A model generated the notes under the pieces. The model was not told the origin of the DNA, ran no database searches, and saw only the letters and a program-made list of their open reading frames with translations. Of a stretch of 46,890 bases of DNA, positions 12,801-39,070 are shown in pieces (position 1 is the first letter of the stretch; every line of letters begins with the position of its first letter). The translations under genes were made by a program, and so were the position numbers. The stretch covers positions 1 to 46,890 of the forward strand of contig JYFJ02003044.1 in NCBI GenBank assembly GCA_000934665.2. The letters are read 5' to 3'. The DNA is from Catajapyx aquilonaris (lineage: Eukaryota).

Positions 12801-15800
12801 GACTTCTTCGTTTCCGCCAAGTTCTCCGAGTCCAGCAGGAGAGCCACCTTAGGGACAGCTTGGGACAAGGCGGTGTCCACGTTCTTCAGATCTTGCAGGC
12901 AGCGCAGCAGAGTCTTCAAGTTGTTCTCCATCCTGACCTCGTCCTTGACATCAACATCCTCTTCTCGCATCGTGTTCCAGTACGACTCCTTCAGGGACCG
13001 TATTAGGCCCTCCCCCAATTGATCGTCCTCATCCTCCAGCAACAGAAGGACCTTCCTCCTGGACAACTCTTGCAGGTACAGCTCCTTCAGCTGCTTCAGA
13101 AAAGCCCACAGGCTCCCGCACTTCGACTTCTTGTCACCGCCGCCGGTGAACCTGGCCCTGGACGGATTTATACGAGGTCATACAAGGATATGAAAGGATG
13201 GACGAATATCGCCGTGAACTTTGGACTCTTCCAATAATGACCAAAATGGTTGAGAGAAGTGGTATGTGTCAAACATTGCATTAAAGATGACATCAACGGC
13301 ACGCAGACAGTTAACCAAGTATTTCTATACAAAAATTAAATAAAAATTAAATAATATGTACCATACCCACAGCAAGTCATTAAGAGGATCTTTGAACATA
13401 TCACAGCCTCTGGTACCCGATCCTCCACCAGCAAATTCGCCATTTTCAGCGACTCCCTGCACCACCTCTCTGTAGACGAAAATTTCGGCGACACCTGCTC
13501 AGTCCATTTGTCAGGTCCGGTGTACATATGGTCGCAAAATTTGTCTGGAAAAAATAATCATATTATAGCCTCGGTGTTATCGCATTTATTTAATCTATTG
13601 CTTACCACCAAAGAACTTGGAAATCATTCGTGATTCCACCAAACACCATTCCTCGCGCTTACTCTTCAGGTGATCAATTGCGCTCAGTCGATCCTCCCTT
13701 CTCTTCAAAATGTCGTCTACTTGTGAGAAGTCAACCTGAAGATGAATAACATCGTGAGAGGCTGTAGTTAAATGAAGCCAAATAACACGATTGTCGTTGC
13801 TTTTATCATTCGGTCAACGATACTTGGAAAGTTGGAATATTAACACTAAGAACCGCACAACGTCAAGGACTCGGATCCTAAACACCGACCGAACGACAAC
13901 GACACCCGTGTGCACAGCCCACAACAATGCTGTTAATTTGCCTTCGCTATGGGTGAGTCGGTGAGGAAGAATAGGAGCAAATCCAAGATGTTTTCTCTGA
14001 CTTCATCGACACAGCAGTTGACTTGAGACAACGCCAATCGCAAGGACTCGCCTGTCACATCCCCTGGAAACTTTCCGCCGCAAATCAGGTTTTTCAGAGC
14101 CTCTGAAGCCTGTTGAAAGGATCGGTGAAACGTAAGTGTGGATTGATTTCGCTGACATGTTATGTGGAGTCATACTACCTTGCACAAGACCACCGGTTGT
14201 ATGTCTGAGAATGCGTTCATGACGGTCTCTGCCAGCTGATTCCTGAGGTGGACATCTCCAAAGGTGAGAGTGTTGCGACCGTCCTCCATCATGCGTACAA
14301 TCAGATGCTCGGCTACCTCCACCATCCAAGCTCTCATAGTGTTCGACTGAAAATTAGAATTTCGACGGATTCGCATTGGGCTATCGTTGAGTCGTTGTGG
14401 ATGCAGTGGATCCCAACCACAACGGCCCAAGCACTTTATACGCTAAACTGAAACTGCACATTACAGAAGAGTAGTTTCCGGAAGGGATGTGGCCAATCTT
14501 GTTATCATGTGACGAGAGAAGCTTGTACTGCTCCTGGACTAGATGCGGGTACAGCCTGCTCATCGTGACTAGAAATTCCCTAGAGCTGCTCATGTCTTCC
14601 TTCGTGTTGCAGTACTGAGGCGTGATCTCCAGAGACTTCCCGATCATGTGCAGGCCGACATCTCTGCGGGTCCTTTTCTCCAGGACCACTATCAGGTCCA
14701 ACAGGGTGGATTTCAGGTGCCTATGGATGCACAGCATCCGCACCGCCTCCTGACTGAACTTCACCACGTGTTGGTGCCGCTTTACCAGGAGGAACAGCAC
14801 CTTCTGGATGTTGGTCCGGAAACCCTCCATGCTTTTTTCCTCGAGCGAGAACTCGTTTTCCATCATTTTGTAGCACACACTTGACAGCAACCTGGATTTG
14901 AGGAAAAGTTGATAGGCATACCGTAAAAATCATCAGCAACAACAACCTACTCGACAAATGAGGTCTCAGCAACGTGGTTTTTCCACAAGAAGTGAATAGG
15001 GAGCTTCACCAAATACAGGATCCATGTCATCAGCACTTGTTTGTTGTGATGCCAGGTCTTTTTCTGCGGAGTGAGTCACACACCGAATTACAGTATGTGT
15101 ACATATAAATATTTAAATATCGTTATTCGAACCTAACATACAATCCCAACTGCAAGTAACTTGACAGCTTGTTTCCCGTATTGACGCTCCATATTTTCAG
15201 CCAGTGTGCATGCTATGTATGAGATCATCTTCAGGATGTTCCTGTACTTGTGTTGAATAAAAGGGTTCATTCTTTCATGGAGCTTGACCTTGCTCAGTTC
15301 CAGTGTGACCTGATACATGGCTGAAACAACGAATGGTTATATGTGATTGACCGTGGGCATGGTATTACAACTATGATGATCAAGAATAATGGGTTCCTGA
15401 CCATTCAAGATAATGCTACAATACTCCTGCACCGTGTCTGCTTCTAGTTGATCAAAACATTCCAGAACTCCGTAGAGCAGGTTGAAGCGACTTAAAATGA
15501 ATCCGGCGCCTTTTGTAGCCAAGGAGTCGTTACACCCTGTAATAACGAGAGGGTGTTACTACGTGTTGTATAGAAATTAGATACGTTTCACTTGGACCAG
15601 ACGACCTCGAGATGAGCCACAGGTCGTCTCGAGTGCACCTTATCCTCTAATCTTATAATATAATGCGAACAGTACAGTTCGTACAAGTATTTCACTTGAC
15701 TATACTGATATACTCACGTTTGGAGCTCTCTGCAACTTCATCGTAGTTGACGAACTCAGTGACGACGTACCTGTCAAGACGAGCGTAGATCAGTTCCCCT

Positions 15801-15841
15801 ATATTTTCGGGTATTACAAACTCTTTTATTTCGAAAGCCAT
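9799..15841 (-). CDS. Condensin complex subunit 1 (CAP-D2/Cnd1)-like HEAT-repeat protein, multi-exon, highly diverged
   Basis: Phase-consistent exons: 15841-15718, 15536-15402, 15320-15142, 15063-14951, 14891-?, ?-14179, 14109-13942, 13735-13606, 13544-13367, 13157-12633, then several partly resolved exons, ?-10310, 10244-10079, 9986-9799. Colinear matches to recalled NCAPD2 blocks: KEFVIPENIGELI..DRYVV; YRNILKMISY; HFLWKNHVAETSFVELLSSVCYKMMEN; DASPEVRLEA...DQTPEVASEAKRFF; CIAMCLSVVPHTEVTLKHI. Some middle exons and the true 3' end are uncertain. Confidence 0.8.
10284..10300. repeat. (GA)n microsatellite in an intron
   Basis: gagagagagagagagag inside intron 10245-10309. Confidence 0.9.
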
Positions 15842-16339
15842 TCGAAAGGATGTAAAAGCCAAATTCGGTCAACGAAAGCGAAAATTCCTTCGGGTGTAAA
15901 GCACCAAAAGGAGTTTAACAATATTTTTGCTTTACAATATTGCACAGGCGGGTAGGTAAGCAATGCAACAATAGAACTATTTTTACTGCCGAGGAATGGC
16001 ATAATCATTGTTATTTTAATTTATTAGCAATGACAACAATGTCATGAGGGCCTTTAAAAATAGGAAAACAATCCATCATGTTTCACTCCGCATCGTTGTT
16101 GTAGATTGTGTCAACGGACTACCGGTACGCAGCACTATGTGCACCCTGCATGCATGATACAGGTCAGTACTGTGTATATATAGGGCAGCTTGCACGTAGT
16201 TTTTGTAACATAGTTTTGCCCATTCTTCATCCCTGTCTGCTGCTTGGAAACAGCCTGTTTACAAGGCCAATTTTTATGGTGGGTTCTACCCCCACTGCAT
16301 AGGTTGGTTCCAGGAAGATAAAATTTGAGTGAGTCAGTA

Positions 16340-19300
16340 ATGGAGCTCGGCACTGCATCGTCCTTAACAACGGCTCAGACAGATGCGACCTCCGTTCAAG
16401 CAACACCGCGGTCAACAACAGTTGCATCAAATGCCAGCCAGCCACCAACAGCTGCATCAGGTACAAGCCAACCACCAACAACTGCATCAGGTACAAGCCA
16501 ACCACCAAAAGCAGCATCAGGTACAAGCCAGCCACCATCAGCATCGTCAGCTACAAGCCATGGTCCACCACCTACCGTTTCTGTTACTGGCCCAGAAGAC
16601 AACGGGGAAGAAAGGGAGCCATCTTTGTCACAACAATCACAAGCATCATCAACAGTTGGTGGGGGTCCCTCAAAGATGTCGATGACGAAATCCGCGTCCT
16701 CAGTACACGGTCAGTATACTCTGAGCAAGTGTTTCTCAAGCTTTATAACATACTACTGTACTATGAATTCTGCAATAAACATCGTATAAATGGTAAACAC
16801 ACTGTGATATATGCAGGATCGCATCAATATATACCTGAAGAGCCTGTCAAGAAGAAGAAGAAGAAAAAGAAGAAGAAGAAGAAGAAAGAGGATGTTGTTT
16901 CGGATGACGCTTCAGGCCCAGAGCCAGTGGAGGAGGAGGAGCCTGCCCCACAGGCCACTGCAGATCCTCGTGACCGTGGCCGCTTCCTGCGCAGGGGCCG
17001 TCTTCCCACGGCAGTCGAACCTCACGTCAGGGGTCTGATCACCTTCGAGGACCTCAGAGGAGCTGCGGCTGCTGCTGGTGTGGAGGGTGCAGGGAGGCAG
17101 CTGTTTGCACAGAGGCGTCAACACCTGAAGGAGCAGGGTGCTGATTCAGGGATAGGATCACACGGAGGCAGGTCGAGGAAGAGCACCGCCAGGAAATCCA
17201 AGATTGCGTCCATGGGAGGTGCCGATAGCCTGGGAGTTGAAGACATGCCCTTGCCGCCTGTCGCTGAAATATACACTTGGCCAGATGAAAAATTTGAAGG
17301 TATTGGCTACATCCAGTCACACCCCTGAAGGCACATTCATAACCAAAGATTTTTCTTCTTCTTCGTGTTACTCACTGTTAGCAATAATTATTGTATAGAG
17401 TACCCACTTGTGTTTCTTCCACTAATTAGGAATGAGTGAGGAAGAAATCGAGTGGTTGCTAAATCGACATCGCCAACTCAACGAAGATTTGAGTGCCGAG
17501 AACCTCTGCCTTGAACGCTACAAAGAAGGTCTGATTCCTCGATTCAAAGAAAAGCTGGCAGTGGAAAGGCTGAGAAATGAAACCGCAATTACACAGGGGC
17601 ATGTTAAACATGGTAAGTTAGTAGAAATATGGGTAGCTTTGGAGACTAATAAAAGTGCAGAAAGGTCATTCATAATGCTTTTTTCACGTTTAGAGGGAAG
17701 AGGATCGAGGACCATGCGTTCTTCATCGCTGCCACAAACACCTGACAACATGTCACAAAAGGTGAGAGGTGAATTTGCTAATCATGCATTCCAATATTGT
17801 ATACAAATCAGGTATTGACTGTCGGGGGGAAAAAAAGACGACAGGGGGATCTTTGTCAGGCAGTATGAATTCAGAACCAGGCACAACCTCGGAGGCGATC
17901 AAGAGGGTGAACTGGAGAGAAAGGGGCAGCCTGTCTTCAGCAGTGGCGGAGGCAAGGAGGCGATCGCAGGACAACAGGAGCCTATCAGCCTCCGACAGAA
18001 GCTTCATTCTGATGGCTGATGGCGAAAAGGCGCCAGAGGACCCCCGCAATGGGCCAAGAAGGATCAGCATCATGAGCGTGGTCACTCATCACACTGACGC
18101 AGCTGGACGCCAGTCTCCAGACGCAGGTCGCAAGGAGAAGATGACACGGTCAGCTAGCATCTGGTCACATGCATTCTCCGATTCAGTCGTGTCAGGAGGA
18201 ACCAGCAGAGACGGATTCAAGTGGGTGTCGCCCAGAACAACCAGTGAAAGACTCGGCACTTTTCATCTGCTTTGTCTCTTCTCCTTCATGACAGACTGGA
18301 TTTGTTCACCAAGGTCACAATCATGGCCAAAGAAAACGAGCATCTGAAGGATGAGGTGGAGAGACGAAGGGAGCTCATCCATAAGACGCTCCTCGTCTGG
18401 AGGTCTGAGCTGGCGGAGAGCACAGAGCATCTGGATGAACTGGTGAAGAACAGGGAGCTGTTCATGAAGAATGTGGTGAACGGACCGTTAGGCCCTCGGA
18501 CCAGCAGGATTATGGCACGTCGTGTCCTTGGGTAAGTATATACCCAACTCTTCAGCATAACATGCTCACAGCGAAGGCATTCCTTGCTATACAGGCACTT
18601 CAAGGACACTCTGAAGCAAAGAGACAGGCTCCTGCTCTACATGATGCTGAAGATGTCCCAGTACAGGGATCTGGTCAAAAAGCAGGCATCTGAGATCAAG
18701 TATAAGATGGAGCTCAGCAAGTCATTGTGCCCGGTCGACTTTGAGTATCAGGATGTCCAGATTTCGATCTACACCAATAAGCTCAACTTCATGAAGAGGC
18801 ACAAACTTCGCCTCAAGGTGGAGAAAGGTGAGTGATCATACTTACCATGCGTACTGACAGGTGAAGCTGCACTCCCTACGTTGCAGGAAACATATTCTCC
18901 AAGAAAATATTGACTCGACGGGAAGCGCTTATGGAGAAGCAATTCCTGAATAATCAGGCGGAGTTGATACGTGAGAAGGAAAGTGAACTGTCGTCAGAGG
19001 ACACGCTTCTCCATGACACACTCAAGGAATTGGGCAAAGCCGAGCAAAAGTGCCTTGTAGCAGAAAAACTTAATCGCAGCAAGGTACAGTTCCACTCATC
19101 ACTTCATAGCTGCCTCCAATGGCAATATTTAAATATTTCATTAGACAAAATGTGCAATAACAAAAAAAAACATCAAATATATATACAGATATCACAGTAC
19201 TTATGCAATGGGAGAATGGACATAATGTATAGTTTGATTTTAAACTGAAGCAAACAAGTTTATACTAGTGTTGCAATGTTCATTCCTTGCTTTCAGGAAT

Positions 19301-19851
19301 AATAGTTATGGATTCACTCTCTTTTAAAATTGATTTCTGATGCCATTTTAATATTGATCTATCTTCAGGGCCCATCAATAGAAGACTACCACACCATAGC
19401 AATGCAGGAAACTGAAGCAAGGCGTGATCTCTGCAAATACGAGAGGAAAATAAACACACTGAACACGGTTATCCGAACCCAGAAGCAGGCCTTGATAGCC
19501 ATGAATAAGAAAGGCCCTGCCCTACAGCTTCCTACTCCAAAGCTTATGAATGGCTTGGTTTTCTCAAAGACACCAAACAAAGTCAAGTTTCCGTACCCAA
19601 TTCGCAATATTGCAAAGCTGTTCCAATACAAGAAAATCATGGACAAGATCAAAAAACGCTTCCGAGATGAAGAGGTCAAGAGCGTTGTGATAGATCGCAC
19701 GGATCACCGACTTTCTCAAGTTACAATTGACACCAACAACACCACACCTTCAGGGGTTGAAGTGATCCATCCAGGCACAGATTCAAAAATCACTAAAACC
19801 AAGTCTGAGAGGTCTGTCAGGTTTCAGGAACCAGTCTTACCAGAAAACTAG
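16340..19851 (+). CDS. CCDC113/CFAP263-like (DUF4201) coiled-coil cilia/flagella protein with long low-complexity N-terminus
   Basis: Exons 16340-16709, 16817-17299, 17430-17612, (17694-17768 uncertain), ~17812-18220, 18295-18531, 18595-18827, 18887-19083, 19369-19851. Matches recalled CCDC113 motifs: SLCPVDFEYQDVQ ~ ALHDVDFQQLKIE; EKGNIF ~ SSGNTL; GPSIEDY...KYERKINT ~ APQVMTY...MWERKVEI. AATAAA at 19895-19900. Start codon tentative. Confidence 0.7.
16437..16560 (+). repeat. 30-bp coding tandem repeat (about 4 copies of SQPPxxxSxT)
   Basis: Unit gcca(g/a)ccaccaacagctgcatcaggtacaa repeated in the first exon of the CCDC113-like gene. Confidence 0.9.
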
Positions 19852-20381
19852 CAAGTGACTGTGAATTCAATGCTTCCCTGAGTTGGTAAGAGTCAATAAA
19901 GAAAAGAGCTTATCTGTTATTCGTAACACATGGGGAGTACCCACTGCCTGTCAGACTCCATATGTACCGTACGGTACATGCACTGAATATGCAAGCTTGG
20001 TTGGTTGTTTTATTGGAGGAGCCAAAGCAACTAAGGCTATCTGACATAGGAGAGCGTGAGAGGGAAAGACAGATTTTTGGGCTGTGGAAGGCAATAGGAG
20101 AATCCTGAGAAAACCCACGTGAACCCAGACAGGACATTGCAGCACAATTTAATGTTATCAACGATCAGCATTAATAGCTTCTTTCCTTTACCTGTGATTA
20201 TCCAAGGCGTAAAAACAGTTGTCTCATTTTGTTTCGTTTTCTCACTATAAACCCCTTTCCCCCAAAAATAGATGAAGGGCATAACATTAAGCCAGACTAA
20301 ATGTAGAAAACTGTTCGATTTTATTCTTAATATTATTGTTATTGGATTGAGGTGGCAGAAAAGACATCATTTGGTGTTGCA

Positions 20382-23300
20382 TCAGTAACCTCCTCTGTTC
20401 CATCCTCCCCTACCCCCCCTGGGCCCTCTCCACATCATCCCTCGGCCTCCTCTCCCGTATCCAGGACCCATCCCACCTCCCATCCCTCCCCCCATTCCAC
20501 CTCCCATTCCTCCGCCCATCCCACCTCCCATTCCCATTCCACCCCCACCCATCCCGCCTCCCATTCCACCCATTCCACCTCCTCTTCCTGGTGGAGGCAT
20601 CATGTACCTGGGCCCTCCTCCATCTTCAGGTCTCTGAGGAAGGCCCATGGGCATTGGAGGCCGCATCATCCTGTCAAAGTGTGGCGGATGTTGCATATGT
20701 GGAGGGGGAGGCCTGTCCCACTGTTGCTGCTGTGGCGGCATCTGATGCATGTCATCCTTCCCCCCTCCATCGTATGCCCTCGACTCCCACACAGGCATTC
20801 CACCCCTTCCCCCGCCTCTGGGTCCCATATGGGGTGGGGGTGGAGGAGTGTCAACTTTGACAGAAGAGGTGGATCCTCCACTGTCCCACCTCCGCTTGTG
20901 GCGCATGGGGGCCAAAGGAGGGCTTCGTTTCTCATCTTCCTCTTCATTTCTCTCCTCAGGTGGGAGCTGCCGTTTCACAAACGGTTCAAAGCTGCGGATA
21001 GGTACAGAACCAGTTCCTCTTCCTCCCACCGTGCCTCCACCTCTGCCTGTGTCACGAAGGGGCGGTACGATGGGCGGCCCCCAACGGCGTGATCGTCCAG
21101 ATTGTGCTCCTGGAGGGGTTGGAAGTAGGTGCTGGTTGGTTCTGTCTGAATGGCGCATGTCCACGTCCTTCTCCCCATCCTTATCAGAGCAGTCCCCTTC
21201 CCCACTCTTCTCAGTCACACCATCCTTGTCTGCTTCTTCTTCCTCCTCATCTGGCTTCAATCCCTTGTCCTCCAGAACCTGCCAAGCACATCCCCAACAT
21301 CGTCAAACAAAATATTTCCTCTTTCTTAAAAGTACTCATGATCCAGCCAAAGTAAAACACGGTCAGGGTGAATGTACTATCAATTACGAAAAGTTCAAGT
21401 GTGCGGTCTACCCAATATATTACTGCACATTCTCACACAAGCTCACCTTGTTTAGCTTGTCTCCTCCCTCCAGGATGGCTTGGGCGAGATCTGATCCAGC
21501 AGGCACAGGGACCACCTTCCCCCCAATGATGATGGCAGTTGGCTGAAGCTCCGTGAGTGGAAGGATCCCTGGCACAAGCGAGTCCCCGCTTCCCCCTCCA
21601 GCTATGCCACCTTCTTTATCAAAATGCCTCCTTCTCCTCCCTTCTTCATCCTCTTCATCTGTTCTCTTAGTCTCATTCCACTGTGCTTGGAAGTTCTTTG
21701 GAATTGGCTTGGCATATGGGACCTTTTTCAAGGGCTTCCCCTGATCAGCTGGAAGCATGTCAAAGTCCAGCCCAGGGATCTCCAGCTCCTTGTTATTCTC
21801 CTTGGTGCTCTCGATGCGGTCTTCCGGACCCATGCCAGGAATCGACATGGAGGGCTCATCCATGTCCATGTCGTCTCGGTCGGCGAGTCCCGCAGGAAGG
21901 GTGTTAAGGTTGTACTTGTCCCTCATCTTATCCCCAGGTCGATTGCGTGTCCAGAACTTGCTGGTGTGGTCATTGGATCCCGAGCATAGGATGTGGCCCA
22001 ATGGGTGCCATGCAAGGGCCCACACTATGCTGTCATGTGCCTGTTCAATAACTCCAACTTCCTTGTCGGACCTGAAAAATTATGCATGTTACATAATTAT
22101 ACTACTTACTACAGTACATGTATGCAATATTTCACCTTAATCAATATTCTAGTGAAATACAAAATGTTTGGACCAATTTCACACCAGATTTAGAGTTACA
22201 AAATATTCACTGATACTTACCCTACATGCCAGAAGAGCACGGATCCATCTGATCCACCACTGCAGAAGAGACCCTCATGAATAGGGTGCCAGGCTACGCT
22301 ACTGGCTTCCTTCTTGTGACCTCTGAAGGTCTGAACCTCTTGGCTCAGATATCTTACGTCGAACAACTTCAAGAGATGGTCCCTAGAGGCTGTTACCAGC
22401 CAATTACCATTTCGGTTCCATTTCACATCCATGACTGTGCTTTTGTGAGCATGCCTGAAGTAAAGATGAGAAAATCATACATAAGCAATGTGTTGACATA
22501 ATTTTCTTTCTCTCTCTCTCTTATTCCCTGTAACAAAAGATCCAACCCTACACTGGTGATCACTGTCTTCTATCGAACAGTTTATTAGCAGTCAGCTGTA
22601 AAAGTATGACAGACACTTACATAGTTGCCAGAGATTGGCCAGTCTTGGGATCCCAGATCTTCACTGGCTGTTGATTGTCCTTACTGCCAGACACGAGGAG
22701 ACCCTTTTGAGGATGCCAGTCCACACAGCGGACATCAGCACCATGGCCTAATGGAGCCAGACATGATAATAAAATGTAAAGTGCCCCAAGCATGACAAAA
22801 TAATATGAATGATAAAACATAATTTGGATAACTTAAAATGCTACTGATATAGGCCCAAGTCCTACCTCTCAGAATTCGTTCTTCATAGCACCGCATAAAA
22901 TCCCACACGCGAACTGTACCATCATCTGAACAGGTTGCAAATTTCTGATCTGTAGGGCTGAAGCTAGATAGAAAGTGTAGAATTAGCAAGTGACTCCATT
23001 CACACTACCAATTGCAATTACACTCTGAACACATCACATCAAAGTTGTTAACACCTGTGACCTGCAGCAAAATTGAACTGATACTGTTATGCACATCTGT
23101 ACACCTGCAAATACTTCGGTATCCAGTTTCCAAGCATCTGATGACTGAGACAGAATGCAAGAAGAATATATATCACAACCTTAAAACCAACGACATCACC
23201 TAAGCTACAACAGACAGAAAAGAATGCCATACAAGAGGTGAGTCATTAAAGCTAGCTAGCTAGATGTAACCAATAAGCTACTGCAATATTGTGGTAGAAA

Positions 23301-26300
23301 ATAGTCCACAGCGTTAAAAGTGGTAAAAGTAACCTGGGGCCATATTCATGAATGGGCACAAATGAAAAGCAACATCCTTTTTGGCAGGAAAGCACATTAC
23401 AGCCCCTCGGTAGTAATCAATTTTGTTTGCACTTGTGCATACATAAATGAGAGTGAATATCCAGATGGCCGTGACAACCTCCCAAGTGTCTAATTGGCAG
23501 GATATTCTCTCCCTGTTCATGTGATATCAACAATACACATTGTCAAAAAATTCCTCAATATCTGCCAGCCATGGTTATGCAGAACATTTAGGTTTAGGAA
23601 TAAGCCTACACCAAATAAACATCCTACCTTCTCATGATGCACCTAGTACAACTAACAAATATTGTGAATCACATAACCTCGCATCCTAATTTTCTAGCCT
23701 TATAATATGTTGACTTCCAAAAAGGCAAATGGCTAGGCTACTTAAATAGTGTATGCTCTCTGCCAAAAAAATGTTTCAGCCAGACTTACGTCTTTTGGCA
23801 CAATACAACCATCAGTACTCACCCAACATAAAGTCTATGGCAAGAAAAGACCAGAGGACTGATGGTTTTAGTCTGGCCATAATATTTTCTTGACAGATAA
23901 CACACTCTCAAAAGTTGCAATTTTATTGACTGAAATTAATCCAGCCCACAAAAATGGCGACCAATTTTTACGATTTCTCCTGTTCAGAGTAGGGTTAAAG
24001 TTGCTCATTGATACATGTGTTCCTGGACATTCACATGAACCTGCATTACCTTGACAGTATTCTATGTTTACCTCATACAACTGACCACCCTGATTGCCAA
24101 AAATGTCAAGAGTCAAGGTGCAGTGTCTACCAGAATACATTCATTAAAATTAATGCCTTCAAGAAATAGTGACTTTCAAAGAATACTTGAAAGTCAGGGC
24201 TGTATTTTTTGAAATAATAAAAATAAAAATAAAACCACACAAGATTAGTTGAATTACAAGTAGGGTCCAAGTGGGGGATAAGTGGAAAGTAGTCATAGTG
24301 GAAACTCTTCCAGAATGTGTGTTGAAATTTGTTTGGAAGTATTTCGGATCCCACACACATTTCCTCAAGTTACTCAGTCAGGTTTCCTGATCCCGTGATG
24401 AGGCATAAAAAGAATATCCAGTTTCTACCAGTTGTGTAGCTCACTTCAAAATGACCAAATGAGCTGGTAGTTATTACCATGGCATAAACCATCCAAACTG
24501 CCAAAGAGCTATCCAAGAATAGCCGACACGAGTTCAGCATTCCAAAGAATATACTCTAAGTGCCAGTTTGGAGTGCAAATAATAATTTTGGAATGCAAAT
24601 TGCATCTTTGCATCCAAACATTTTGACTCCTGCAATACCCAGGATTTAGTCACTGTCATATCTAAATATGCTGGGCAGAATTTTCGTCCCACTGCTAACT
24701 TAGCCGTACCAGTGTTGGCAGTATGGTACTGCTAAGTTAGCAGCAACTAGCAGAGGGACGAAAATTCCAACCTCTGTCTTTCCATGTTAGGCAGGATGTA
24801 TCAAACAATAACTTTTTAAAAATTCATGAATTACAAAAGATTTCTGCTGTACACAAGTTTTTGACATATCAAGATCCAGTACAGTTCAGTCCTACCAAAT
24901 AAGGGTACACCTGGAGGTAGGCAGGTTTGATCAAGAATCTTAAAACAAAATAATTAAAAATAATATTTTTCAGTGAAACCACAGGAGGTGCCTCACAATA
25001 CATGGTATGGTCGTTCCACATAGAAAAATACTCCCCACGTGCAATAAAACATGGTGTATATCCAGCACAGTGTTGGACATTANAAATTGTTGAACATATT
25101 CTGTAATGTCTTAGAATCACACCCATGGGAATGATGGTTTTCATTTTCCGATTGATAGTATCCAAGAGGAAAACTGCTCTGCAACCTAGAGAAATAGCCT
25201 ATATAAACACTGCAACAGACTTACGCCTCAAAAAGAACAAAGAGAGGCATGGGTAGAGCACACACCTGCAAGCAACACACAACATAAATGATGCTTCCAT
25301 ACAACCCTTATTTGGGTGTGGGCTGGCTAAGCATTTGTGGAAGCAAGGCTAAGTTGAAGTACAAATCCCCTGAACGGAAAGGGTCGCTTCCAGGATTGAT
25401 TTTCACAATAGTTTTTACTGAAAATGATTCCTAATGATATTAGATGAAAAAGTGGAATTCAGTTTTTAAATTATCTTCTGTCCTCTAGGTAGTGAAAATC
25501 TGGCCTTGCAAGTTCAATTTTTTTGCACTTGAAAAGGCCCCAGAAGGGACTAGGAATCTCGCAAAACTTTCATTTAAATTTTTATGACAATGAAAGATGA
25601 TGGCAATTTTTTGAGTGGCATATTGTTCACATGTATTATTCATTGTCGGCAACAATTAGTACACAATGAATAACATCCATTACATCTGCAATTTGTAATG
25701 TGCCAGCCCTTAGAAAGTCTTTCAAACTACAAAAGGCATTTGTTCTGATAGTACTACTGACAGATATCATTTAAAAATATGACACAATCATGCACATCAT
25801 TAAAGTTAAGCTGGCAGGTACACTACTGAAATACAGCGAAATCTGTTCATTTCCGCGATTTTTTCTGGGAACTGTGTATGCATATGGCATGTGTATTCTG
25901 TGGCAGAAACTTGTCCATTCCGAAAAAATTTAAGTCACTTGCAATTCCACTATGCACGTTTCACTGTACTTTGAGGCTATCGTGCTGCAGCTGTGTACTG
26001 ACAACTTATGTTATCATGCAAACAGAATATCAGCAGTAATCTCAATTAACTTATTTCAGCTTTAAAAACAATTCAATTAAAAACCTGGTGGTATTGCTCA
26101 TCCATCAACTCCCTTCAAAAAATCTGAATGTGCTCACCAACACTTACCTCACATTCACCATTATTTTGAACAAAGTAAGAATCAACGTGTTAAAGCTCTT
26201 ATTCTGTACGTGACTGTTTTGCCCTTGCCCACAACATCCAATCTGCATTACAAATGTACAACCTACTGTGATTCTGAAAAGCAACTGTGATATAATTTAC

Positions 26301-29300
26301 TAAGGTTTGCAGCACTCCTTCCACACAAGGAAATAATAAGAAAATAAATACAAAAAGAATGGAGATAACTGCCCTGACCAGTAGCAGGAAAAAAAATAAT
26401 TTCTAAACATATTAGGTCATTATTACTGATATCAAAATAGGATGGAATATCTTTAATAGGATATACTTGGTTGGTTTGTTACAGCATTTTCTTTTAAATT
26501 TAAAGGGTCATGTGAAGGGAATTATAAGGGTATTTTATTTCTTTATTGGGAAGTGTGACTTTATTCATGTATGCTTTATTTGGGATAGATGACATTCATT
26601 ACTCCTCTTGCTGAACCGATTGTAGTTGTAATATTTATTACGAAAAAAAAATCTTCTCGCCAGGTATTCCAAGCACGCAGGCCATGAAGAATGAGCAACA
26701 GAAGAATAAAAATGAGCATAAGGACTCTGCTACCTTCATGTTTCTTTTCTCACTATCTGTGCGACACTGCTAAGTCCAGTTAATTCTCTTTGGTGCTTTT
26801 TCTGCAGTTTTTGTAATGCCATGTAGGCATGTCCTTGAGATACTCGTAATGACTTTTTACTGGCTTACTACACTGCATCGACCCTAAAAAGTAATGTAAA
26901 GATGTCCCCCAACAACATACTGCAGCTTTGAATTTACAAATTAATTTTGAGCACTGTTCACATACTGCTAAATTTTGAGTATATGTAAATATCTAGACTG
27001 CTGTCCTACCAGAAACAATCACTTGTATAAAATGAAACAGAAAACATCATAAAAAGTTAATTCACCACTGGTATTTTACATAACTTTGAGTACTCTAATG
27101 CACTGACTGTGAAAGTTTCAATTAATTAGCTCCCGGCAAATATAACCTGTCTAACATTTGATAATGCGATGCATCTAGCTATTTTGTTTATAAATGTGCT
27201 CAAGGCTTGTAGGCACCAGCGTTCATATTTTTAACCCTTCCCTAGTATCAATATGAGACCAAATTCGCCCATTTAATAAATAAGAAGCTTGCTATCTGTC
27301 CTGCCCTACAGAATATCTGGTCAACTAACTTGCGTAGTAAAGAATAACTCCGAAAATACAGGACATGATCAACTGATGTGCATTTGCAACAAAACCTGGC
27401 AGGACATCAACAAAGTGATAAAGCCATGTGAATATTCTACCTATTGAAACTTCCTGCCTCTACACCACCATGCCCATGAAGACAGCAGAGTCCTTCACTA
27501 TCTCGTTATTTGAGTCCAAATATTTTTTTATTGCCATCTCAAAATTGTACAATTTATTGCAAAATGAATGTTACTTCTTTAATTCTGTAACTAATTTGTT
27601 TGAATCTTTAGAAAATAAAAAGGGGGTTTCTTTATTTCAAATGCATTACATGAGAACGAAATTGGTTCATGCACCAAAAACCCATCTACTGGCGAAAGGG
27701 ACTTCCGTGTCTTTATTAGGCCGTTACAACTGAATTAAAAGGTCCAGGTTGCTCACTTTATTAGCAAAGATAAAATGTAGTATTCACTTGCAGGTGGCTT
27801 TGAAAGTTAATCGGGGGAAGGGTTGCAGGATTGGTGTGAAGGGTTGCTGCACTGCCCAACATTAATTTCATTTAACTGTTCGTGCTAAGGATGCTAAGTC
27901 CAGGCTTGCTTTTCTATCCTTCACGTATATGAAATTGTAAAATTACAAATAATGTCTTTTAAATGTTCACCTACGAGTGTCTAGCCCAGAGAACCAAAGT
28001 ATTAGTACCGTCACAAAATTTATTTCTGGATGTTTTCTTGGGCAAAATTATGGAAACTTCTGCACAGGCACAGTAAACCACTGTGCATTCTTACAATTTA
28101 AATTTCCTGGTGCTCTAGTAATGGTTCAATAAGTTACTCGAGGTTATGCCCAGAAAAACATGAATTTCAATGTGATGTTACTAGGTGTATCTCTGTTCTG
28201 AGGTTCTTTTACAACGAGATGATTCTCATCATCGAAAGTTAAGTATATTAATGCTATTGTTGTTGACTACTTTGGATTCTTTAGATGTGTACTGTACATC
28301 ATGTCCAGTAATCATTGTACTACTTCGCTCTCCTTCACCGCTAGCCAAGCCTTTCCAATAAAATAATCAAAAAGCAAGTTACAGTACTCCAGCACTCAAT
28401 CTCACTCAAATCCAATGCTATTATGCAGTGCTTCTACTCCTGGCCGCACCCTGAAATAAAATTCTCTCTCTTCCCCCCCTCCAACGACTATTTTTCCAAG
28501 GTCATGAAACAAAGCAGAATGGATGATGAATTACCTGGATATTTTGTTTGACACAGTAATGCAGGCAAGAAAGACTGCATGGTATGACAGCATTCCACAC
28601 TTCATCAAATGTCTCACATAACTGTGTCCAAACACATGCTGTATGTTGACAAAAAGCTCAACCAAGTGCCTGTCTGAGACTATCACATTAGTTCTAGAAA
28701 TTCTTTTGAGAACTTAAGAATTCTTGTGATGATCAAGCACCCAGTGCACACAGCTGCCTTTCAATCTTTGCTTGTAATTTACCAGGTAATTTGACACCAT
28801 TCTGGGAGTATAAAACCCTGAAAACCCTCTCTATGCATGAGGGACATTCTCTATACCTGAGGCCACGAATGGCTTCCTTATGTGCTTGGTACATCTTCAC
28901 GTTGTTCATGTTGGACTGCCAATACTTGATGTAACCGCTGTGATCTCCTGTCACCATCCACACGTCATTGTGTGACCACACCATTGTTCTCACTGGGCTG
29001 TCATGAGCCTAAAATGCATAATGTAACGTATTAATATTGCAGTCCAGCTACTTCAACTGCAGAGTTGTAATTTTCTCACAATTGCTAATCAAACAACTTT
29101 GAAAAGACGAAATATGGCTCACCTGTAAAATGGTCTCAAAATTGAACGTGAGACCATTCCAAAGTGTGAACTCTCCACTTGAGGCACCTGTAACCAGTCG
29201 CCTGCCTTCCGCAGTCCAAGCAAGGCAAAAGATTGGGCAGCGCATTTTATTTGTGGCTGTCTTCACAAACTTGGTGGTGACCGCATTGATGGGATTGTGT

Positions 29301-30835
29301 AGCAAGGATGGGGGCGGACACATACCGGGATAATACAGGACATCAGGCTGAATGGCATGCCTGTCCCTGAAGTCCCGCTGCCACACCCGACCCTGAAATA
29401 ATACACATGCCAATCACTGGAGCCAGAAATTACAACAAGTATCCACACTGGATGCATGATCACATTAACAGAGTGAAATCTGAGTATAATGGGATTGATC
29501 CACTTAATGGAAATTTTCTGAAATACACAAGTTTCTGTTGTATTGGACAATACTAAAATAGGGTGAATGCATAGGGACCTAACTTTGAATGATAACAGAA
29601 GAAGTCAGGGGAGCAGTCTGCCTCAAGGGCAGATTAAGTGTTTAGTTTCTTATGTAGCAATGAAAGAAAAATGAATGAGTGCAGGGGTATGGGAAGAGGG
29701 TATGGGGTTGGCAGAAAAATAAATGGCATAAGGGGGCAAAGGATGACAAAGGAAGTCTTGCATTATTATGCACATCTGAGAGAAGCTGATATCACACATG
29801 TTCAAGGTTCCAGACTTGTCATTTGTCTCTGTCAGATGCAGAACAGCATTTTGTGAATGTACAGTATGGCAGTGGATCTCTGAACTGCCATACTCTCTCT
29901 CTAAGCTACTCTATTCTTGATTGTGGGGGAGGAAGGGCATTCCTTATTGTGGCCTGCATACCAACACCCACACACCCCAGACAATCACTTCCTCTCCCAG
30001 TCTCTATATTTAAAGCACAAAGTTTGCATGTCAGATTCTAGACTACTTCAAAAGCTGAAAATTGCTATAAAGGGAGCTGATCAGCAGGAAAATGCCCCAA
30101 ATCCCCCAAATTTTTGCATAGAACACATTTTTAAACCTTTGACAACCAAAATTCCTAGAACACACCAGGAAAAATTGGTATCATAACAATTCTCCCGGGT
30201 GCGCAGCGCGGATTTATGTCAGACAAAAGGATACCCACAGTCCGTTAACCCAAAGAACGATGTGACGTCACCTTCCGCCAGCTTCCACCAGCTTCCACCT
30301 GGCTCTTCCTTCCTCTCATGTCCCTCTTCAAGCATACTACTGCGCATGCTCAGAAAACACGGCTGGTGTGACCTCAGATAGTTTTTTGGTTTAAAGAACT
30401 GTATAGTAAAAGGGTTTACCAAATGCTACGATGCCCACTGACTTTGTGGGTAGTACTGGCAAGAGGACAAGTGCTGTCGTATTTCATAAAACTTGACATG
30501 CAGAATGGTTGCGATCATTCATCACACTCTTCCATGCGTTTCATTAATTTTTTTATAAATGCCATTCAAGCAGAACTTACCTCCAATAAATTAATCACAG
30601 ATGAATTGTAATCTACTGTCTTCCTCATGACACTTTTCCTCAGCCTTTTCCCATCAAACTCCATCTCAGGTCCAGGTCTGGGATACGGTCGATACGGCGC
30701 GTATCCTGAATACATCCTCTGAGGTTTATTATCAGGACTGACATATCGATAGTTAGGGGAGAACTTGTTCCCCATCCCCATGCCCATCCCCATCCCCATG
30801 GGCGGAGGAGGGTGTTGCATCTGAACAGCTTGCAT
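20382..30835 (-). CDS. WDR33: Pre-mRNA 3'-end processing protein WDR33 (CPSF subunit, Pfs2 orthologue), 885 aa
   Basis: Eight phase-consistent exons: 30835-30581, 29392-29123, 29008-28857, 22963-22866, 22747-22621, 22454-22221, 22071-21447, 21278-20382 (2658 nt). Diagnostic sequences: [89 protein letters not shown]. Gly/Pro/Met/RGG-rich tail. Sense-strand AATAAA at 20320-20325 and 20009-20014. Confidence 0.97.
24678..24767. repeat. 90-bp imperfect inverted repeat in the large WDR33 intron
   Basis: gaattttcgtccc-a-ctgctaacttagc-c-gtacca pairs with tggtac-t-gctaagttagcag-(bulge)-gggacgaaaattc. Confidence 0.85.
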
Positions 30836-31120
30836 GTTTTCAGTCTATCTTCGAAGTCACTGCACTAGGTCACGAACTGGAAAGGTCAGATCAACCAATT
30901 ATTAGGTATGAACTTTTTTGTTTCCAGAATGTTCGATTAAGGCTTGGAACATGTCATCTCCCCGGCATAAGGAACGCGAAAGGGACTCACATCATGTGCA
31001 CCGCTACCTTCCTCGGTGCTTGCTGCCTCTTCCCAGCAGGTCCGTTCCAGCCGGCGGGCGTCTCTTCCGAGGGAAAGGGAAGAACAGTTTTTCACCGGAG
31101 AATCACAAACACGCACTCAC

Positions 31121-31999: not shown

Positions 32000-33342
32000 A
32001 TGAGGCATTGTCTGACTCTTTCTCTCATTGCACTGGCATTCATCAGTGTTGGTATGTACAGCCTTCAACTATCATACTTACGCATTTAATAATGCTTCTC
32101 TACCGTACATTACTGTATAATAAGTACATTAATTTTCAATGACTTCAGCAGTCTTCTGCAATCAAAAGTAAAGCTTCAAATTTCAATTACGCAGGGTGTG
32201 ATGAGACCACGAATAAGACCATAGATGAGACCACGGATAAGACCATAGATGAGACCACGGATAAGACCAAAGATGAGACCCCTGGACCTGAAATCAGCAA
32301 AAAGTGTCTAAGGTGCATCTGTCTCGCGATGTCAAGATGCAATTTCGGAAGAGGATGCAGTACTACAATGACAGGCAAAAAAATTTGTGGTGCATTTCAG
32401 ATGACCAAAGTCTACTGGATTGACGGAGGTCGACTCGCCGTCAAAGGGGATGAGTCAAACATCGATGAGGACAAAGGTATATTAGATGGCGTCAGAGGCC
32501 AGACAAAGTTACTGCAAGTTGCATAAAAGTAGTACGACTGCATATCATTTTGTGACTGCGTTGGTTTATACAGTTGCACCAATAACCAAGTCATGAAGCA
32601 ACCAGATTACATAGTACATACCGGTACTGTATAACACAATAGGTATAATGTAAGACAAAAAAGCTACATAGTCTGAAGATACGGAAAAGCCAATGTACAT
32701 ATTTAAAAAATATTAACATAAAAACTGCAATATTATTAACCTCCATCTCCACAGAGTAATCTAATATTTAGATATTTTCAAAGATTTAGAACTATGTAGC
32801 ATAACGTACACTGCCTGTTTTACGTGATTTGTGGCATTCACAAACATGATAACTTTTTTTTCTAACGAAATTAAGATTAGTGTATAGGACCTACCTGTAT
32901 ATTTTACTGATTGCAACATATTTCTTCATTGCAGTTTTCGAAAATTGCGCCAATGAAGCTCGATGCGCTCGTCAATCGGTGAAAAATTACATGAATAGGT
33001 ACAAGAGGGTATGTATACATATTACTACTATCTTTACAACTGCCAAAAAATATATAATATTAAATTGTATAACACATTTCTCTAGATAGTACAGAATAAC
33101 GAATAATATCGGTGTTGTGAGTGCTCTATACTGTATACCTCTAGGTGATGTTGTTTAACTGGTAATAATATTCTTCACTAATGCAGGATTGTAACGACGA
33201 TGGAAAGATCAACTGCGAAGATTTTGCGAGAATGCACGGATTCGGACCTTCCGGTTGCAGCCAGACATCCGGCCTGACCAACAACTTTTACCGAGCTTTC
33301 AGTACCTGTAAAAGGAATCTGCCTCTGACTGATGATGATTAG
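32000..33342 (+). CDS. Invertebrate (i)-type lysozyme/destabilase-like protein 1, 187 aa, secreted
   Basis: Exons 32000-32051, 32195-32476, 32935-33008, 33187-33342. Signal peptide; CLRCIC..SRCN, CGAFQMTKVYWIDGG, VKNYMNRY, DCNDDGKINCEDFARMHGFGPSGC. Confidence 0.93.
32200..32280 (+). repeat. 24-bp coding tandem repeat (DETT[N/D]KT[I/K] x3)
   Basis: gatgagaccacg(a/g)ataagacca(t/a)a x3 plus a partial unit, between the signal peptide and the lysozyme domain. Confidence 0.92.
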
Positions 33343-33884
33343 AAACTTGTCCACGCTTCTTTTCTTATAAAGATTTGCTGTGTTGCCTTCAGAATGTGAC
33401 TTGGCCAAATTCTGAATTTATTTGTTCCGTGTCAGTGCAAAAATAACAGTGTGTTACGGAATTTATTATCGGAATAGTTACAATGTACCTGTTCATGTGC
33501 CCTGTCTTTATGACTGTGATATACGGTACCTGTATGATGAAATTACAACAAAAAAATGGCATAGCCTATCATGTATAATAATCGATTAAATGCTGTTGAT
33601 TATTACTGCAATATTTTCTGGTTATAGTGTAAGTGTGACGGAATTTATTCCACGCAGCCATTACTCGGTGTCATATTTACAACGTGCACATCAGGAACAA
33701 TGTTGCATAATAGCAAATATTTGATCTCTCTAGACGGACAGGAATGAAGCAAGTGAAGCTTATGAAATGTGAAGCATTAGCGGTGTCAGCATGTACCACA
33801 CCAATTGCATAAATGACATGGTGATGACATAGCTGCATGTACGATATGTCAGCAGTATCATTGTAAGAATCCTCGAGCATAACA

Positions 33885-35392
33885 ATGAAACCCGCGAAGC
33901 TCATCATCTGTGAGAGGTGCTCTGTACTGGCCACATTACGATTGTTGCTGGTCGCGTTTTTGGTGTCAAACATTTGTGCCCATGTAGAGTACGAAGGTCC
34001 GGAAGGTGCAAGAATAGTGGGTGGTCATCAGGCTGCCAAAGGAGAGTTTCCATACCAAAGTTCGCTTCAGTTGAAGGGTTATGCTGGTCAACGGCACTTG
34101 TGTGGAGCCACCCTGGTTCATCACAACTGGATTATCACGGCGGCTCATTGCGTCTTTGGGTAATCCAGCACACATACTACAAGTTGAGTTATAGCCAGGG
34201 AATACCTGAGCGAGTTTCTAATTATGCAGCATGCAACCTTGAAAATCTGCATAACATTAAATATTTACTGCGTCGCATAATACGAGTAACAGTGTCACTA
34301 ACACGATGTACTGTACGTCAGATCTGTACTGAGTATTGACGTCTGCAGTTGAACGTGTCTTTAGATCCACAGACATGTTTTTTGGGTTTGCTACATATAA
34401 TATTATTCAAATATGGCGAGCAGAGGATCACTTTATGCAGAGAAGCAGAGGTGTTTGTTTGGTCTCCGCCATCTGCTTTACCAGATTTAAGATATTTACG
34501 TAATGAGCATGCACTAGGTATATACACGTAGCCTAATCTTCGACACGCAAATTCGCAGGATATCCAAGGACAAGATGAATGGCAATGATGTACGTCTCCT
34601 CTCTATTCCATGGGTTAAATACATCAGGGAAATTAATTGTGCCCCACGAATCGCGATATTTTTTCAGGAGGCCTCCAACAACCCTAGTGGCGTTGATCGG
34701 TGCCTTCAACTTGAGCGATCTAACTGAAAAAGACAGACAAGAGAGACACGTCGTTCAAGTGGCCATACATCCTAACTTCTCACACGGTTCGCTCATGTAC
34801 GACATGGCTCTACTCCGTGTAAGGCATAATTTTTTCTTCGTGTAATTAAGAACATAATTATATTAATTTACGAAGCTGTGTCGTGCATTTTCTATCGATA
34901 ACTGTCATCCAATTGATTAATTTTAGGTGGAGTCTCCTTTCACCTTAGGAACCATGGCGCGCCCTTTGCCATTGCATCCAGCCAACAAGACATTGTCAGT
35001 GGGAACATCTTGCATTATCACCGGTTGGGGTAGAATCTCCGTAAGCTTCATGGACACTTCAGGACTCTTTCCCACCGACTCATTTCCAATAATTACAGGA
35101 AGACGGGCCATCGTCAGCAGTGTTAAGAAAAGCCGTGGTACCCTTGGTGTCTCCCAGCTCATGCAGACGAGTGTACGGGCCACGAGTGTCTCGAGCCATG
35201 TTGTGTGCCGGACTCGCCAGAGGAGGAGTGGACGCTTGCCAGGGTGACTCCGGAGGACCCTTGGCCTGCGGGGGTCACCTGGCCGGACTCTCCTCCTGGG
35301 GGTTCGGTTGCGCCTTGCCTGGATTCTTCGGGGTCTACTCACACGTCGGAAGGCTCAGGGATTTTGTCGACCAACGACTTAGAGACAAATAG
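33885..35392 (+). CDS. Trypsin-like serine protease (S1A), 277 aa, single domain
   Basis: Exons 33885-34159, 34668-34818, 34927-35040, 35099-35392. Hydrophobic leader, activation site R|IVGG, intact triad TAAHC / DMALL / GDSGGP, S1 Asp in DACQGDSGGP. AATAAA at 35434-35439. Confidence 0.95.
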
Positions 35393-35771: not shown

Positions 35772-37009
35772 ATGGAGCGATTCGGGATTCTGGTTTTTGT
35801 GGCATTGGCATTGTGCAGTGTCGGTAAGTGCAATAATCTTGACATATTATGTAAGATAACAACCTGAGGGGAAAAAATCATTATCCTTTTCATATAACAC
35901 AGGCCATGTTCGATAGGTCTCATGCTTCGATGTCATTCCCCAGCAGATTGATTTACACCTAATAATCGAAACATGCTTCTTACGTCAGGTTACTCCGTTG
36001 AAGTCAGCAGGAAGTGTTTAGGATGCATTTGCTACGCGAACACGCAGTGCAACTTCAATAGAGGATGCACCACATCCGCAATAGGAACAAAAATTTGTGG
36101 CGCGTTTCTCATGACCAAAAACTACTGGATAGACGGTGGACGCAGCACTGTCGAAGGCGATGACGCACAGAGCGACCAAGGTAATCTCTTATATCGTCTT
36201 CCAGCGATGCTGTGGATGCTGTGTGGATGTCAATTTTGTTTTCCAAGGCAAATAAATTAAGTGAATGATTGTTACAGACTGATAGGACAATTAAATCTCT
36301 GTATTTCATAAGCAACAATTCCGCTTAGGCATTGTGGAAATGATTAGATAATTTTCTAAAAAAATTATAATGCAGCCACTGATGGCACCCAAACAATTGT
36401 CCAGGCATTGCACAAGTGACCTTCACTGGCATGTCCACCAATGTTACAAAATTTCACGAAGAACTGCAGGGAGCATAGTCAGTATATATCCTATCTAGAT
36501 CATGCTACAGCGAGTTTGCCGACGCTTACTCTCAAATAGCAAAAAAAAAATCTCCAACTCCACAGGTGCACAGCACTTAGTCTTAAAATAATGAGTTATA
36601 TTGTTTTGTACCTTATCATAAAATACCGAAAGCCATTTACTGATGCAGTAACTCATGCACACAAAATCAAACCCCACATTGTTGCATTATTCTTTCAGCA
36701 TTTGAAAACTGTGTCAACAATGCTCGATGCGCTCGTCAAACCCTGAGAGGATACATGAATCGTTACAAAAGGGTAAGCAAAGCTCATTATATGAGATGTT
36801 AAATAGTGTGTGTAACAAAACAGCTCCAATAAAATATGTCTCATTGAGCACAGGACTGCAACGGTGATGGAAAGATCAACTGTGAAGATTACGCCAGAAT
36901 TCACGGCTTTGGACCTAGCGGTTGCAGAAACCCATCCATACTGACACACACGTATTATAAAGCGTACAGTGCTTGTAGAGATGACTTAACTTTCACTGAA
37001 GAGGACTGA
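35772..37009 (+). CDS. i-type lysozyme-like protein 2, 157 aa
   Basis: Exons 35772-35823, 35989-36180, 36699-36772, 36854-37009; same intron positions and phases as copy 1; CLGCICYANTQCN...YWIDGG...DCNGDGKINCEDYARIHGFGPSGC. AATAAA at 37276-37281. Confidence 0.93.
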
Positions 37010-38100: not shown

Positions 38101-39070
38101 ATGTTATTGGAGAGATGTCAGATTCTGGTTTTTCTGTCGCTGGCATTATTCAGCGGTACTCGTAAGTGCAATGATATCGTGCTTTAGTGTGCCACATTTT
38201 GATTGGGTGAGCATGGAATGGCATTTAAATTGAATAAATCGTGGGCATGCGGGTGAAATCCACGAAGTCCTGGGATAAGTCGGAAGGTATAAAGTCTGCT
38301 TATGAAAGCAACTTTGCTCCAATTTCGATAATAAGTGCTGGGCCCATACTGAATTATTGTAACACCATTTGCACTGGTACTAAACCGGATACCTCATTAC
38401 ATTTCTCAGGTTGCGGGACTAAAGTCAGCAATAAGTGTCTAGCATGTATTTGTCACGCCATGACAAAGTGCAACTTCAATAGAGGATGCACAACTTCCCC
38501 AATAGGAACAAAAATTTGCGGCGTGTTTTTCATGACCAAACCTTACTGGACCGAAAGCGGACAAAACACTATCGAAGGCGACAACATCGACAGTGAACAA
38601 GGTAATCTCATTTAGGGTTTTAAATACCTCTGCATGCTGCAAGGAACGACTTCGTGGTTACTATTCCTAACACTGGTGAAGCACCAAATACACACCTATA
38701 CTATTGTGTAAAATACAAATAATAATTGTATAATATATATAGGCAATTATTTCAGCTTTTGAAAACTGTGCCAATGATGCTCGATGCGCTCGTCAAACCC
38801 TGAGAGGATACATGAATCGTTACAAAAGGGTAAGCAAAGCTCATATTATATGAGAGCTTAAAATAATAGCGTGTGTAACAAAACTGCTCCAATAAAATAT
38901 CTCATTGAGCACAGGACTGCAACGGTGATGGAAAGATCAACTGCGAAGATTACGCCCGAATACATGCCTTTGGACCTACCGGTTGCCGCGACTCATCCAG
39001 ACTTACACACAAGGTTTACAAAGAGTTCATCGCTTGTAGAGAGGACTTATCTCTCACTGATGATGACTGA
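38101..39070 (+). CDS. i-type lysozyme-like protein 3, 160 aa
   Basis: Exons 38101-38161, 38410-38601, 38756-38829, 38915-39070; CLACICHAMTKCN...PYWTESG...DCNGDGKINCEDYARIHAFGPTGC. Confidence 0.93.

Follow-up and report, generated by a model that had tools for sequence, protein, structure and literature searches.

Clustered AATAAA signals behind a weak donor in the large WDR33 intron of Catajapyx aquilonaris: a possible V2-type attenuator

The gene for WDR33 lies on the minus strand of a 46,890-nucleotide (nt) stretch of the Catajapyx aquilonaris genome (assembly GCA_000934665.2, contig JYFJ02003044.1, positions 1 to 46,890), hereafter the window, an entire contig of this 286-Mb genome. Its eight coding exons join into one frame of 885 amino acids (aa), for which the best full-length match among the fetched proteins was a damselfly record (85.5%). 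A contig from run X1 unites all WDR33 exons and crosses the large intron exactly. According to this contig, the coding introns measure 1188, 114, 5893, 118, 166, 149 and 168 nt, and a further joint corresponds to the 114-nt intron of the 5' untranslated region (UTR). The initial annotation of the locus, made from the sequence, had given the same limits for the large intron and at most 1.2 kb for all other coding introns, and the contig bears this out. X1 is one run of unrecorded kind kept as contigs, which show neither ends nor strand. The features of the locus are collected in Table 1.

Table 1. Features of the WDR33 locus, listed in the direction of transcription (positions are those of the window; a dot stands for a feature given no strand).
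Feature	Position	Strand	Remarks
WDR33 coding exon 1	30581..30835	-	114-nt 5' UTR intron upstream, 30877-30990
WDR33 coding exon 2	29123..29392	-	
WDR33 coding exon 3	28857..29008	-	ends HKEAIRGL, phase 2
Weak donor CAG/GTATAG	28851..28859	-	matches 1/4 at +3..+6
WDR33 intron, 5893 nt	22964..28856	-	orthologue of human WDR33 intron 6
Read-through frame	28733..28856	-	41-residue tail, TGA stop at 28735-28733, giving a 266-aa protein with two WD repeats
Possible alternative acceptor	28670..28691	-	AG at 28671-28670, CTAAT 18 nt upstream
1139-nt contig of X1	27533..28671	.	no mismatch; would be the 3' UTR of a short isoform
Single AATAAA	28019..28024	-	upstream of the proximal cluster
Proximal cluster	27527..27762	-	five AATAAA in 236 nt (27527, 27553, 27631, 27712, 27757)
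5' arm of a 21-bp helix	27475..27495	-	GU-rich, lying 32-52 nt past the last proximal hexamer
3' arm of the helix	26720..26740	-	734 nt away; full pairing only on the WDR33 strand (two G.U)
Distal cluster	26534..26639	-	five AATAAA over 106 nt, of which four within 47 nt (26534, 26542, 26560, 26575, 26634); possible back-up site
U-rich tract	26320..26360	-	starts about 170 nt past the last distal hexamer
Dispersed-repeat family copy	25377..25642	.	about 70-75% identity to dozens of places
Short hairpin-shaped dispersed repeat	24663..24781	.	near-perfect hairpin, distal part of the intron
WDR33 coding exon 4	22866..22963	-	followed by exons 5-8 to the stop at 20382
AATAAA, likely terminal signal	20320..20325	-	about 60 nt past the full-length stop codon

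The position of the intron is that of a known site of short isoform production. Vertebrate records of the V2 type diverge from full-length WDR33 at the same residue and phase as the Catajapyx junction (the tail of P0191 has 118 residues), as the initial annotation had supposed from the human short isoforms. The human isoforms V2 and V3 arise by polyadenylation in introns 6 and 7, polyadenylation in the orthologous intron was shown by 3'RACE, and V2 homologues with predicted membrane tails are described in Drosophila and Nematostella; the 118-residue V2 tail is assigned to intron 6, and no invertebrate V3 was found in that study (PMC11019558). Human intron 6, the source of V2, is slowly spliced and 1668 nt long, and intron 7 measures 36284 nt (PMC11445923). 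Intronic polyadenylation at this WDR33 intron was already published for human, Drosophila and Nematostella, and is no novelty of the present locus.

In Catajapyx, the donor of the long intron is the weakest of the seven coding donors, with one match out of four at +3 to +6 versus two to four for the six others. The donor score is solely the match to the U1 consensus.

The long intron contains 12 AATAAA hexamers on the sense strand of WDR33 and 11 on the antisense strand, in line with an earlier remark that the two strands are similar in number. Ten of the 12 sense hexamers, each exactly where it had been annotated, fall into two groups, the proximal and distal clusters of Table 1; the remaining two are at 28019 and 23922. 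Clustering was seen on the sense strand only, the antisense maximum being three hexamers in 230 nt. Dinucleotide shuffles of the whole intron contained 3.9 hexamers on average, and 0 of 3000 attained the observed count or any of six statistics, so that clustering withstood the composition-preserving control that had been proposed for it. In block-wise shuffles (120-500 nt), the cluster statistics were attained in 0-2 of 3000, and random placement of 12 hexamers produced two groups of five in 230 nt in 0 of 100000 trials. The genome background was drawn from 60 stretches of 10 kb, giving 240 windows of 5893 nt (pairs overlap) with an AATAAA density of 0.745 per kb and strand. At least 12 hexamers were present in four of these windows and five in 230 nt in two; five in 100 nt, or two groups of five in 230 nt, were present in none. 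Four in 41 nt were reached in 4/240 windows, at three distinct places that are all AAAT-type microsatellites. The guanine plus cytosine (GC) content of the intron is 37%, under the 5th percentile of the genome windows; among 24 GC-matched windows, one attained the count and none had five in 230 nt. The chance figures for the clusters flatter the result because the window sizes were chosen after the clusters had been seen. The intronic AATAAA clusters exceed chance. The total count, first thought to be near chance, does so too, with 12 against about four expected, and this applies to both strands. A repeat or mobile-element origin of the clusters was ruled out: 26200-27900 and 27900-28856 match only themselves in a search that skips common words.

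The two clusters are not equally well equipped. In the proximal cluster, TGTA lies at most 60 nt upstream of three of the five hexamers, and two of the five have a GT/TG-rich stretch downstream. In the distal cluster, on which the initial annotation had laid the stress, none of the five hexamers has TGTA within 60 nt upstream, and there is little GU downstream. The U/GU tract at 26360-26320, which had been annotated as following the distal hexamers, is too far from the last hexamer under the distance rule for an ordinary downstream element of a poly(A) site. The proximal cluster is the better-supported one, and the distal cluster is without support of use.

The intronic contig of X1 fills most of the distance between the read-through stop and the end of the proximal cluster. 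Its start coincides with the AG at 28671, upstream of which lies a branch-like CTAAT, and may reflect an alternative acceptor, a separate transcript or an assembly break. It ends at 27533, 20 nt past the hexamer at 27558-27553 and directly before a genomic A run (27532-27521). No X1 contig covers 28672-28856 or 26016-27532. As these are contigs from one study, their ends and the uncovered stretches were counted neither for nor against either cluster.

The tail of the read-through frame is not hydrophobic, with a best 19-residue Kyte-Doolittle mean of 0.11 versus 1.86 in mammalian V2 records; this test used a hydropathy window only. The putative acceptor at 28670 would yield a 46-residue tail of borderline hydrophobicity (1.54), and no X1 contig links exon 3 to it. 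The early-ending transcript apparently cannot encode the known membrane protein, and its main use may therefore be to curb the gene.

Related proteins were searched with two queries. Among the 120 matches listed for exon 3 plus tail, 14 read R-Y or R-W past the junction, and none had the same tail. The second query was a short form from Bactrocera, and only matches of 168-536 aa were taken; among 120 listed, 70 diverge exactly at the junction, 49 are canonical and one has an insertion, counts that are not frequencies. Arthropod short forms are named for Bactrocera, Zeugodacus, Lygus, Apis, Atta, Callosobruchus and Oryctes, and in some cases the gene model may have been truncated at a long intron. 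A bee/ant cluster represents a 304-aa form that is spliced upstream and occurs on 50 contigs. The share of donors without an immediate stop is unreadable from protein clusters, where forms that stop at the junction merge into the full-length clusters. In Hymenoptera, a hydrophobic intron-encoded tail of about 56 residues is conserved from ants to bees in its sequence and length as well as in its stop (L091 894-1060, L092 439-605; P0067, P0229, P0234, P0235). Judged by these features, it is a good candidate for V2 in this order. The Bactrocera record P0266 continues past the junction with S and six other residues, and so uses an alternative acceptor inside the intron, V3-like in mechanism.

A metagenome scan gave 165 loci, the best 80 of which were analysed. 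The junction carried an intron or read-through in 63 of them, was contiguous in 11 and was not parsed in six. GTRAG was found in none of the 63 donors. These 63 loci form 20 lineage groups, and 16 were kept for the hexamer count after four groups with less than 300 nt had been left out. The first 1.5 kb of the intron (17658 nt over the 16 groups) contained 63 sense versus 33 antisense hexamers; sense was higher in 13 groups, lower in two and tied in one, the groups contrary to the excess being L149 and L081-L088. By comparison, the upstream intron (17 groups, 9790 nt) contained seven sense versus 17 antisense hexamers (Fisher p=0.002 against the junction intron). The donor score was 1.75 at the junction (n=20 groups) versus 2.47 at the upstream intron (n=17; p=0.003). 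These p-values are optimistic because hexamers of the same cluster depend on one another and 30 loci are lumped in a single group. Complete introns measured 343-5378 nt in 14 loci and more than 10 kb in three, and in 12 of 13 loci no measured neighbour was as long as the junction intron.

Dense groups of hexamers, at least four in 230 nt, recur in some lineages, including the vertebrate locus L134 (four, +334 to +430). In the ant-like pair L091/L092, five hexamers align, and a 100-nt block with four hexamers is 97% identical, versus 64-70% in the blocks from +201 to +500. Compared with L095, L091 has four upstream joints spliced, and it extends 1094 nt into the intron. L145 reads 1045 nt into the intron and ends in ten A, 22 nt past ATTAAA, where a templated A run is possible. 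The sense excess and the aligned ant-like hexamers show that an intronic poly(A) signal is conserved as architecture, and not as sequence common with Catajapyx. The initial interpretation gains support from the intron position shared with human V2, the weak donor, the sense excess and the spliced contigs of other animals that run into this intron.

The tails vary more widely. Hydropathy was at least 1.6 in 9/17 groups with a closed frame, versus 65/249 random open stretches; in one hydrophobic-tail group the top score probably stems from low complexity, although 26 of its 28 members reach the threshold. Tails below 19 residues (1-14) occur in 5/17 groups with the weak donor retained, including L098, which has six sense and no antisense hexamers. 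In L081-L088, the first 260 nt past the donor are near-identical, the tail has ten residues, and AATAAA is present at +166 in 8/8 loci; the intron exceeds 10 kb and has no clusters.

The gene for CstF-77 in this genome served as a control. It contains a 15.1-kb intron with a consensus donor and eight scattered hexamers that form no clusters (L074-L076; G000:C1768 6247-21346). The preceding intron follows a 33-nt exon, has the donor AAG/GTATGT, measures about 880 nt and contains three AATAAA (L074 5236-6146); we take it to be the orthologue of the human feedback intron. A long intron was therefore not upheld as a mark of feedback, and intron size alone means little. The single large intron, pointed out in the initial annotation, is not diagnostic: the large intron of human WDR33 is intron 7, and the CstF-77 intron is large without clusters. 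In the same genome, four separate DWNN-domain exons (RBBP6-like) were seen (G000 C4637, C880, C7188, C2923).

The Catajapyx intron resembles a V2-type site as well as the checkpoints of CstF-77 and PCF11, and its read-through tail is not a membrane tail. It shares with human V2 (intron 6; PMC11019558, PMC11445923) the intron position, the phase, the in-frame read-through that follows the second WD repeat, the presence of several downstream hexamers and a weak donor. It differs in its tail, which has 41 residues without a hydrophobic segment whereas the human one has 118 and is transmembrane; in its hexamers, which lie 1.1-2.3 kb past the donor in two dense groups; and in the intron itself, which at 5.9 kb is the largest of the gene, whereas in human intron 6 is short and intron 7 is large. 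Human V3 (intron 7, alternative acceptor) has in common clustered intronic sites, a large intron and a possible alternative acceptor, but it belongs to another intron, whose Catajapyx equivalent has 118 nt and no sense AATAAA. The PCF11-dependent attenuation of WDR33 and RBBP6 concerns the same gene, with premature cleavage in the gene body that lowers full-length output; it is demonstrated in human and zebrafish only, and the intron is unspecified in the accessible text (PMC6458999, Fig. 7C-D). Finally, CstF-77/su(f) (PMC3708835) and PCF11 (PMC6458999, PMC6428223) likewise combine a gene for a 3'-end factor, a weak donor, a large intron and a truncating intronic signal. Feedback at these two genes was shown by knockdown and site deletion, whereas at Catajapyx WDR33 it is hypothetical; and their sites are not described, in the accessible parts, as five-hexamer arrays.

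On balance, we favour the view that the intron is a conserved attenuator answering to overall 3'-end-processing activity, that is, an intronic polyadenylation checkpoint of the V2 type. The weak donor would delay splicing, and a share of the transcripts would be cut at the hexamers about 1.1-1.3 kb into the intron, most likely in the proximal cluster, with the distal cluster as a back-up. The short product, with two of the seven WD repeats and a short non-membrane tail, would be unable to read AAUAAA for that reason and is probably a dead end. Since cleavage and splicing compete, less full-length WDR33 would be made when overall 3'-end-processing activity is high and more when it is low. Vertebrate data suggest that such an attenuator would respond to the machinery as a whole (PCF11, CFIm, CPSF with WDR33, U1) and would not be a sensor of WDR33 only. 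Indeed, premature termination of WDR33 is under PCF11 control in human and zebrafish (PMC6458999), and PCF11 is the reported limiting factor (PMC6458999, PMC6428223). WDR33 mRNA also goes up by log2 0.40, 0.31 and 0.30 after knockout of CPSF1, CPSF2 and CPSF3, like CSTF3, PCF11 and RBBP6, a rise that read-through may inflate (PMC10664987).

Several observations weigh against an attenuator. The intronic contig of X1 is strandless and unjoined to exon 3, and neither cleavage sites nor poly(A) tails are mapped for the species. The antisense strand of the intron carries nearly as many AATAAA as the sense strand. Clusters are not universal, being present in only 5/16 group representatives, and the closest insect-like group (L081-L088) has one sense versus six antisense hexamers in 1.5 kb. 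None of the best 80 of 165 loci resembles the Catajapyx intron at the nucleotide level. Read-through proteins are known for the upstream intron too (P0265, P0268), so some records may be plain intron retention. In human cells, CFIm25 knockdown lowers V2/V3 with V1 unchanged, and FIP1 or CstF64 knockdown leaves V2/V3 unchanged (PMC11445923), which argues against strong feedback in HeLa. Moreover, as far as the accessible tables go, WDR33 has no row among the human genes with differential intronic polyadenylation after CPSF or WDR33 knockout, whereas CSTF3 is in all four (PMC10664987).

It is possible, though we consider it unlikely, that the intronic sites serve the production of a short V2-like protein with a function of its own, which in human is that of a membrane-bound STING regulator, and that they have no feedback role. 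The membrane tails predicted for the Drosophila and Nematostella homologues (PMC11019558) fit this explanation, as do the frequent hydrophobic tails among the 17 groups and the tail kept between ants and bees. The read-through tail of Catajapyx does not, with its score of just 0.11, nor do the five groups that retain a weak donor with 1-14-residue tails, L098 among them. In Catajapyx, splicing to an alternative acceptor near 28670, instead of read-through, could supply a hydrophobic tail: the intronic contig starts on the AG at 28671, the resulting 46-residue tail would score 1.54, and P0266 of Bactrocera uses another acceptor in the orthologous intron. However, exon 3 and 28670 are joined in no X1 contig.

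Strict autoregulation, in which the hexamer array would be a dose sensor for WDR33/CPSF30 and WDR33 would set its own output, appears still more doubtful. WDR33 does bind the hexamer (PMC11019558, PMC11445923), arrays and not single sites recur in the orthologous intron in several lineages, and WDR33 mRNA rises on loss of its partner CPSF subunits (PMC10664987). Against this, several lineages have no arrays, the limiting factor is reported to be PCF11, which also governs the attenuation of WDR33 (PMC6458999, PMC6428223), and WDR33 is absent from the accessible differential table after its own knockout, where CSTF3 is present (PMC10664987). The accessible parts of PMC4407891 and PMC11331416 say nothing about feedback by WDR33. 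Listings of open-licence papers and bioRxiv showed no test of its autoregulation, and subscription papers or supplements may hold one.

That the clusters are unused by WDR33 and reflect A-rich drift in an AT-rich intron, with 27533-28671 as an independent intronic transcript, a processing fragment or an artefact primed from the genomic A run (27532-27521), is the least probable explanation: the 11 antisense hexamers, the low GC content, the lack of sequence conservation with the best 80 of 165 loci and a contig that is unlinked to exon 3 and halts just before a genomic run of seven A all agree with it, but composition-preserving and GC-matched controls fail to reproduce the clusters, the sense excess is specific to the junction intron across lineages, polyadenylation in the human orthologous intron is seen by 3'RACE (PMC11019558), and the explanation suits the distal cluster better than the proximal one.

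For the attenuator that we favour, the event itself is known, and the gain lies in a sharper test and an evolutionary argument, with no new mechanism. The short isoforms of WDR33 have so far been read as immune proteins. In species with a weak donor and poly(A) signals but no membrane tail, two possible purposes come apart: production of the short protein and limitation of the long one. Such species provide a clean setting in which to ask whether a homeostatic loop of 3'-end processing includes the AAUAAA reader next to CstF-77 and PCF11. One may go further and imagine, as a tentative idea that we find rather improbable, that the ancestral job of the V2 intron was feedback through the weak donor and an AAUAAA array, a dose sensor for the hexamer reader, with the STING-binding tail added later in some lineages. 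Such a sensor would have been kept across animals even with tails of 1-14 residues. The 21-bp helix of Catajapyx might then time the switch to the back-up cluster, by hiding the proximal downstream element once 750 more bases have been made.

This helix is merely noted, and is not a special feature, because a helix as strong or stronger is present in 39/120 genome windows, even if its energy was attained in 0/300 shuffles. The 871-nt region of the helix folds no better than its shuffles (z -0.88), and no like helix was found at a like place in 17 related introns. The arms were also considered as ends of a mobile element, and this was ruled out: the 21-mer has two exact places and one place with two mismatches in the genome, and the reversed control has one.

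Rfam models gave no family match in the intron; two sub-threshold matches (E 0.15 and 0.4) both fell on the hairpin repeat. Upstream of WDR33, the window contains three paralogous destabilase (i-type lysozyme) exons in tandem (32143-32526, 35952-36260, 38238-38615), and a trypsin-family gene (33867-35392) sits between the first two. Downstream of WDR33, long multi-exon frames extend over 10047-19851 on both strands; one exon tested gave no Pfam match.

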